A stretch of 64,000 nucleotides of DNA, taken from the NCBI GenBank assembly GCA_964016885.1, contig OZ024742.1, positions 285,634,001 through 285,698,000 of the forward strand. Direction: 5' to 3'. The stretch's first letter is position 1. The number at the start of each line of letters is the position of its first letter. Origin of the DNA: Eledone cirrhosa (lineage: Eukaryota). The notes beneath the pieces are model-generated. The model had not been told where the DNA came from. It did not search any database and was given only the letters and a program-made list of their open reading frames with translations. A program made the translations under genes and the position numbers. Positions 41,408 through 42,445 of the stretch are shown one piece after another.

Positions 41408-42445
41408 TATAAATATAATGTATTTTGCAATACACTTTATGCTTAATTAAAAGCATTTTGAAGACCGTAAGCTATTGTTTTAAAGTAGTGACAAATTCAC
41501 TCACTTCGATCAACAACCGCTCTGCATAATCAGCTCCTGATTATTTACTAGATTTCTATAAGAATATAACATCAGTGATCTCAGTAGACGGGCGGGGTAG
41601 TTGGCCTTGATAAGCTTCAACAAAAGCGAAACATGTCATGTCGGCTTATCTCCTCCTGTTTGCTGAGATCGAAGTGAGTGAATTTGTCACTACTTTAAAA
41701 CAATAGCTTACGGTCTTCAAAATGCTTTTAATTAAGCATAAAGTGTATTGCAAAATACATTATATTTACATCCATATATATATTGCTATTTCAGAGCTAC
41801 AATTCTAATTTTTAATTTCTGCCTGACCAACAACCGCTCTGCATAATCAGCTCCTGATTATTTACTAGATTTCTATAAGAATATAACATCATTGATCTCA
41901 GTAGACGGGCGGGGTAGTTGGCCTTGATAAGCTTCAACAAAAGCGAAACATGTCATGTCGGCTTATCTCCTCCTGTTTGCTGAGATCGAAGTGAGTGAAT
42001 TTGTCACTACTTTAAAACAATAGCTTACGGTCTTCAAAATGCTTTTAATTAAGCATAAAGTGTATTGCAAAATACATTATATTTACATCCATATATATAT
42101 ATTGCTATTTCAGAGCTACAATTCTAATTTTTAATTTCTGCCTGACCAACAACCGCTCTGCATAATCAGCTCCTGATTATTTACTAGATTTCTATAAGAA
42201 TATAACATCATTGATCTCAGTAGACGGGCGGGGTAGTTGGCCTTGATAAGCTTCAACAAAAGCGAAACATGTCATGTCGGCTTATCTCCTCCTGTTTGCT
42301 GAGATCGAAGTGAGTGAATTTGTCACTACTTTAAAACAATAGCTTACGGTCTTCAAAATGCTTTTAATTAAGCATAAAGTGTATTGCAAAATACATTATA
42401 TTTACATCCATATATATATTGCTATTTCAGAGCTACAATTCTAAT
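41408..42445 (+). mobile_element. ORF-less tandem element, three ~318-bp units each with an HHR, plus inverted 5' piece
   Basis: Units start at 41511, 41828, 42147; 41408-41511 is an inverted copy of part of the unit; (TA)n both sides. Confidence 0.88.
41603..41646 (+). ncRNA. Hammerhead ribozyme with U3-A8 core (copies at 41920-41963 and 42239-42282)
   Basis: ggcc-TTGATAA-gctt..aagc-GAAA-catg t catg-TC-ggct. Confidence 0.8.

Follow-up and report, generated by a model that had tools for sequence, protein, structure and literature searches.

The tandem repeat at positions 41408-42445 of the window raises the question of how a short, protein-free sequence with a hammerhead ribozyme motif in every unit is copied and inserted. 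The window is the whole stretch of 64,000 nucleotides that was analyzed (G000:C3:285634001-285698000), from an Eledone cirrhosa assembly of 3.0 Gb in 1,796 contigs. The preliminary description of this span had reported a triple 318-bp tandem. Its coordinates are right, but the near-identical tandem comprises 2.95 units of 317/319 bp, and the stretch 41408-41511 is not a tandem unit but an inverted arm. The locus consists of two arms arranged head-to-head, with (TA)n outside both, and its features are as follows.

41368-41417, no strand: left (TA)n target, from TRF and the sequence; overlaps the short 3' end of the inverted arm
41408-41511, minus strand: inverted arm, unit positions 24 to about 124-140; ends tail-less (short 3' end) in (TA)n
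41508-41511, no strand: head-to-head inversion junction, a 4-base overlap of both arms
41508-42445, plus strand: plus arm, a tandem array of 2.95 units of 317/319 bp, non-coding, 35% GC, from TRF and the sequence
41577-41670, plus strand: hammerhead copy 1 with a 16-bp lower stem I extension; U3 at 41607, A8 at 41612; predicted cut after C41642
41643-41959, plus strand: predicted 317-nt monomer between two cut sites; in predicted folds its ends pair via the long stem
41894-41987, plus strand: hammerhead copy 2; U3 at 41924; predicted cut after C41959
42213-42306, plus strand: hammerhead copy 3; U3 at 42243; predicted cut after C42278
42420-42445, plus strand: Penelope-type 'tail', unit positions 141-166, on the plus arm only
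42444-42485, no strand: right (TA)n target, from TRF

The units are bounded at 41512-41828 (317 bp), 41829-42147 (319 bp) and 42148-42445 (298 bp, partial). They differ at only two places, G41575 in unit 1 and one additional TA in unit 2, and TRF assigns the array a period of 319 and 2.9 copies with 99% matches. The inverted partial unit at 41408-41511 is 97% complementary to 41667-41783. Target-site duplications are illegible within (TA)n. The longest stop-free frame confined to the array is 46 aa, with no protein and no LTR layout, and no tRNA gene was found in the 64-kb window. Elsewhere in the window there are broken remnants of Penelope-element (PLE) reverse transcriptase/endonuclease at 4493-4976, 20686-22465 and 53805-55178, with 35-50% identity to the protein of a PLE found at another locus (L040). 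Further hammerhead-like cores lie at 42675 (-), 16853 (+), 52880 (-), 52966 (+), 55805 (+) and 57644 (+), those at 52880-57644 surrounding a PLE remnant. Homogeneous minisatellites occupy 24300-25658 (92 bp), 28346-28894 (24 bp) and 49286-49809 (88 bp), with 96-99% matches by TRF.

A hammerhead with a U3-A8 core in every unit, and an extension of its stem I over 41577-41670, had been described beforehand, and both are borne out. The three motifs in the array are identical, with A8 five bases 3' of U3 in each, and they are of type I: N3 U4 G5 A6 N7 N8 A9 ... G12 A13 A14 A15, U16 H17, with three stems and stem I open. Stem I is GGCC/GGCT, stem II is GCTT/AAGC and stem III is ACATG-T-CATGT. The last of these is palindromic (41631-41641 in copy 1) and allows an intramolecular maximum of 4 bp with a 3-nt loop. 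The lower stem pairs 41577-41592 with 41655-41670 over 16 bp, including three G-U pairs; the fold of the region has z = -5.9, and 0 of 200 shuffles were as stable. A hammerhead descriptor found 7 matches in the window versus 1 in 30 block-shuffled windows. The Rfam model Hammerhead_HH9 (RF02275) matches all three copies over its full length (E 1.3e-5), yet at 31 bits versus a gathering score of 52, at which Rfam returns 0 matches; the element is not a member of that amniote family.

The core pair 3-8 was followed in a covariation alignment of 26 homologues, which are hand-picked and related. Of its 793 cells, 95% pair, and double-sided changes are found in 18 of the 31 pairs, while slid controls are paired at 35-47%. 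Apart from positions 3, 7 and 8, the catalytic core varies little or not at all. At 3-8, 22 homologues have U-A and 4 have C-G, with no mismatch. U3-A8 is a maintained compensatory pair and not decay, as had been argued before, with no random variation at either position. Homologous C3-G8 subfamilies (L038, L118, L121, L123) place the switch inside one lineage, and U3-A8 in this lineage may perhaps have a single origin. Within the young family itself, U3 is invariant in 185/185 segments and A8 in 187/187, a test of low power at 99% identity. Genome-wide, motif counts by 3-8 pair are 5,259 for U-A, 4,150 for C-G, 164 for C-A and 199 for U-G (reversed-pattern controls: 40, 9, 30 and 49, respectively); these counts pool several families, some of them unrelated, and the events are not independent. 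The 363 mismatched cores make up 3.7% of the genome-wide total, and many of those listed are single-change copies of the main families. The U3-A8 pair is less surprising because it has already been published for Penelope-element (Cercyon) hammerheads of Schistosoma, with ~1,300 hits in the account given in PMC4209133. A literature search for a hammerhead with U3A8 by name found none, and the pertinent passage of PMC7151607 does not give a cleavage rate for the pair.

It should be mentioned that other hammerhead-like families are present in this genome. Two more, apparently unrelated, hammerhead-like families with U3-A8 cores were seen (L105:1697, L119:3452 and L120:5203/6251; window 31730 (-), L103 and L126), and in L120 a hammerhead-like pair brackets a PLE endonuclease remnant. 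A very abundant C3-G8 hammerhead family, dissimilar to the 317-bp unit and often in head-to-head pairs, dominates the listed C-G matches (L092:4314, L112:4546, L117, L119, L120, L122, L126-L128, L130).

The repeat of the window belongs to a larger family. When the genome was searched with a single unit, 990 candidates came up; the 40 that were scored hold 242 matches, those listed being 97-100% identical, and a 32-nt hammerhead stretch has 497 exact genome copies against 0 for the control. In all, 69 loci were examined: 39 from the unit-search list, which is biased to full units, and 30 chosen by position from the first 100 exact-match places (all of C1 and the first half of C2) among those not yet sampled. 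The positional list holds 35 loci per about 650 Mb, which by extrapolation would correspond to roughly 150 loci genome-wide. The family is young and encodes no protein, and its 317-bp units conserve a type I U3-A8 motif. Its tandem 317-bp units, type I hammerhead in each, 35% GC, absence of protein and dispersed copies are those of non-LTR retrozymes, the class to which it had been compared from the start, and by these sequence features the element likely belongs to the known animal non-LTR retrozymes. A plant LTR retrozyme was considered and is ruled out by the type I motif, the tandem units and the absent central region, as opposed to type III motifs in two LTRs. A 310-bp C3-G8 relative (L058:4589-6300, L068:4980-5700, L071:49-1850), ~75% identical over unit positions 69-213, is also two-armed and has a minimal palindromic stem III. 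Contigs with the unit or its relatives also occur in runs X1, X2, X3 and X6 (four organism labels, kind of run not on record), with 1,511 pieces in X3, 248 of them at 99% or above.

The most informative feature of the locus, absent from the preliminary description, is the Penelope-type two-armed insertion. We called an outer end short if it fell at unit position 148 or below, inside the unit's own TA run (131-140), and tailed if it fell at 156-174. Both outer ends can be classified at 56 of the 69 loci; another 9 have a single arm, and at 4 one end is atypical. Of the 56 two-ended loci, 54 pair a short end with a tailed one, the exceptions being L036 and L055. After removal of L141 (a duplicate of L140) and L066 (whose end is at an assembly gap) the count is 52/54, with p 8e-14 versus the 0.5 of independent choice. 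The positional sample shows the same pattern in 24 of 29 non-satellite loci, the remaining 5 being without a second standard end. The tailed end is followed within 12 nt by (TA)4 in 58 of 62 cases. Whether arrays start at variable phases had been put forward as a check, and the answer is split: the 5' junctions lie scattered over the whole unit, but 3' ends occur at two fixed sites, one at unit positions 130-140 and the other at 166-173. These are offset by ~30 nt, with a retrozyme tail of ~26-43 nt. Inner junctions are variable, mostly with short overlaps. In older homologous subfamilies (76-97% identity) the ends fall at the same unit positions, as judged by eye in 40 hand-picked regions.

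This geometry is known from PLEs. Their signature is an inverted 5' copy plus a 30-40 bp tail at one end (PMC3846280, PMC8557442), and the tail is ascribed to the distance between two internal starts of reverse transcription, both target strands being cut and extended (PMC11167929); the Naiad and Hydra clades both favour (TA)n (PMC8557442). An intact young Hydra-like PLE of this genome has the same layout: among 20 regions, 12 of the 14 two-ended loci have their ends at -130 and -44. We therefore consider it very probable that the repeat is mobilised in the PLE manner. A repeat moving at the DNA level (a MITE, a Helitron-like element or a satellite seed), with the arms as terminal inverted repeats and the hammerhead as a passenger, could account for the inverted ends at every two-armed locus, and expansion at the DNA level is real, as the satellite described below testifies. 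Such a repeat should not have ends that differ by a fixed tail in 54/56 loci, nor a variable inner junction with arm lengths from below 100 to above 4,000 nt; the autonomous PLE has the same layout, and the ribozyme fold covaries. This explanation is largely refuted, and we give it very little credence.

The search for a partner PLE took in a minority of the PLE families, the protein search having returned 38,389 candidates. The young intact Hydra-like family (L073:4064-6274 and L071-L090) encodes 737 aa, and 150 of 150 scored matches are at 96-100%. Its RWR, DKT and CxCX5C motifs match the Hydra description, although the 737-aa protein has no Pfam match. It is inserted in (TA)n, and its tail is 86 nt versus 30-40 nt in the literature. 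The terminal repeat, in which a hammerhead-like C3-G8 motif was noted whose stem II carries a long insert, is not detected by the unit, nor by a 50-segment profile on 32 target stretches. Near the start of the PLE ORF there is a weak local match, above all shuffles for only 1 of 7 units; the ATG version of this shared motif has 23 matches, with frames of 13-61 aa at 11 of 12 loci examined and at most 61 aa overall. At L040:1-3697 a truncated Hydra-like PLE and its 54-bp inverted piece are fused with a retrozyme array joined at unit position 14, and a second copy of the block lies 3.1 kb away, on the other side of an assembly gap. A single coupled event was considered for this fusion and is not accepted, both ends being tailed.

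What RNA served as template can be approached from the variants within arms. The 262 segments compared, from 39 loci, show 0.34 differences per 100 nt inside one arm, 0.40 from arm to arm and 0.87 from locus to locus. The variant G251A is fixed in 13 loci, absent from 25 and mixed in 1, while permutation gives a mean of 31 mixed. Among the 58 two-armed loci, 44 are informative, and arm haplotypes agree in 42 of them against 31 discordant ones expected; L034 and L035 are the discordant pair. It is noted that concordant arms would be equally expected if one source locus were expressed at a time. The cut site is crossed by at least 116 of 129 arms, and a single one of the 129 5' ends falls no more than 2 nt away, with about 2 under a uniform expectation; arm positions and lengths are approximate here, as tracing ended early in several arms. 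Arms of the positional sample (n=54) have a median of ~386 nt, and 6% exceed two units, figures that are somewhat underestimated.

A ligated monomer circle would most simply account, together, for the conserved ribozyme, the bottleneck of one unit and the read-through that does not stop. The chain of events that we propose would begin with transcription of tandem loci into multimeric RNA. Adjacent hammerheads, brought together by pairing of the palindromic stem III, would then cut; the 317-nt monomer set free would have its ends held by the long stem, and ligation would give a circle that its lone hammerhead cuts poorly. The endonuclease/reverse transcriptase of a PLE, probably of a TA-targeting clade such as Hydra, would cut both (TA)n strands and prime two cDNAs at internal sites ~30 nt apart (130-140 and 166-173) on the same or clonal RNAs. 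Both cDNAs would traverse the ribozyme junction, halt at variable points and join head-to-head, and some arrays would later expand or mix through DNA-level turnover. That a circular monomer is the main template is plausible but unproven, and we lean towards it slightly. The repeat is likely a non-LTR retrozyme copied in trans by a PLE enzyme; the whole chain including the circle we place likewise a little above even probability. More tentative, and in our estimate somewhat short of even, is the reading of each insertion as one reaction, in which a PLE enzyme dimer primes both (TA)n ends at two fixed sites and rolls round a single viroid-like circle, while the dimer-only U3-A8 hammerhead cuts multimers and spares the monomer circle.

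The same element and the same PLE enzyme could also have worked on uncut or partly cut linear multimers, with circles, if any, as a by-product, and with long arms derived from long transcripts or from later unequal crossing-over. Typical arms are short, so an uncut linear dimer or trimer would suffice. Mosaic variants occur in 10 loci, some at junctions and others inside arrays (L038, L044, L051, L054, L062), and in L054 a 3-unit block is repeated. The two-armed insertion at G000:C2:207686300-207732000 (L160-L164) has a plus arm that has expanded into a satellite of 45 kb or more; the 49.5 kb examined hold 135 U3-A8 cores in units of mixed length (316/304 bp), and the right end lies beyond them. 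Tandem copies alone are thus no proof of a circle. At L036:2513-5447 a mirror copy of 1,215 bp at 99.8% takes in the array, the TA tract and a PLE fragment, and both array ends are tailed; such a joint duplication is not producible from a monomer circle. All these observations suit a linear template, as does the preference of the anole PLE for uncut RNA, and the mosaics and the satellite show DNA-level expansion or multimeric templates. Variants fixed throughout both arms nevertheless need a single-unit bottleneck at some stage, partly cut RNAs would have piled 5' ends at the cut site, where 1/129 is found, and such strong conservation of the fold needs cleavage to matter somewhere in the cycle. 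We regard the linear template as possible but doubtful. In L048, L067 and L137, every second unit carries the variant, with the phase shifted from one arm to the other, a pattern expected of a dimeric template; a dimeric circle as the general rule was rejected, as L038, L044, L051, L054, L062 and L148 have no such alternation.

Whether the hammerhead acts on its own bears on either template. Stem III with its loop is palindromic in every subfamily seen. Its innermost pair, which in most rows leaves just 0-1 nt for a loop and so could not close within one molecule, is nonetheless formed in all 25 of 25 rows and has double changes in 11. For the window sequence, the hairpin of stem III is predicted at +1.0 kcal/mol and the two-copy duplex at -10.5 kcal/mol. 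The conserved palindrome, taken with these predictions, suggests cleavage as a dimer, and palindromes of such type are described in PMC4209133 as letting multimers be cut while monomeric circles are spared. The active fold of a single motif is predicted to lie 5.3 kcal/mol above the minimum-energy fold, in which the U3-A8 strand would pair with loop III. With the active fold predicted to be disfavoured and stem III to be stable only as a duplex, an assay of a lone motif could fail on a working element. We consider a ribozyme under selection for activity likely, as the conservation indicates. The opposite reading, improbable in our view, is a conserved fold that is not active alone, either in need of the PLE protein or serving as a structural handle, with U3-A8 tuning activity down; it is compatible with a circular or a linear template. 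The predicted pairing of the U3-A8 strand with loop III speaks for it, as do the anole PLE hammerhead, for which PMC11167929 reports cleavage only with protein and uncut RNA as the main substrate, and the weak in vitro activity of PLE hammerheads related in PMC4209133. A near-invariant core and concerted change at positions 3 and 8 point instead to selection on catalysis. It should be added that dimers of Xenopus retrozymes gave no in vitro cleavage in 8 of 9 cases, as stated in 10.64898/2026.07.22.740005.

We have compared the element to the systems it most resembles. Animal non-LTR retrozymes, as portrayed in PMC7229834 and 10.64898/2026.07.22.740005, share the ~300-bp tandem units, low GC and absence of protein, together with one type I hammerhead per unit, a long stem pairing the monomer ends and co-occurrence with PLEs; mobilisation of retrozymes by PLEs is proposed in both papers. 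The U3-A8 core sets the present element apart, and head-to-head arms, short plus tailed, in (TA)n are not described in the text at hand of these papers, the word 'inverted' being absent from the main text of PMC7229834. Circles and cleavage have been demonstrated for coral and mussel retrozymes (PMC7229834), whereas for the element here cleavage is predicted and a circle proposed. Li et al. (10.64898/2026.07.22.740005) give a link to PLE terminal repeats for 24 of 57 Xenopus families, while none is established here. With endonuclease-bearing PLEs, including the Hydra clade, the element shares the head-to-head inversion, the optional 30-40 bp tail, the (TA)n targets and a type I hammerhead with palindromic helix III, as set out in sections of PMC8557442, PMC3846280 and PMC11167929. 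It differs from them in having no ORF and in being, as a whole, a multi-unit array, and its tail of ~26-43 nt compares with 86 nt in this genome's Hydra-like PLE. The Cercyon hammerheads of Schistosoma carry the same compensatory core change, but the account in PMC4209133 has them as minimal and mostly single motifs, while stem III is longer here and the units are in tandem. In the literature covered, which leaves aside most subscription papers, no paper was found on a two-armed short/tailed footprint for retrozymes, and none linking retrozyme and twin priming; judged by title, none of the papers listed for octopus and hammerhead ribozymes is on retrozymes.

The best reading is that the element is a young retrozyme behaving as a non-autonomous derivative of a PLE would. 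Both the class of element and the U3-A8 core have been published already, and copying of a circular template by PLEs is put forward as a hypothesis in PMC7229834, while 10.64898/2026.07.22.740005 says of the retrozyme mechanism that it 'remains to be elucidated'. The mobility of animal retrozymes and the use of the hammerhead to Penelope elements are open questions that this family touches. From it come two mapped priming sites, an end rule (short on one side, tailed on the other) with almost no exceptions, and pairs of arms that share their haplotype. Documented in it as well is a natural switch from C3-G8 to U3-A8 that went on to spread to thousands of copies, and searches for a CUGANGA core miss many animal retrozymes. 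If the reading of each insertion as one reaction on a circle is true, the family would amount to genomic proof that a Penelope enzyme can retrotranspose a retrozyme in rolling-circle fashion, and it would offer a 317-nt substrate for reconstitution.
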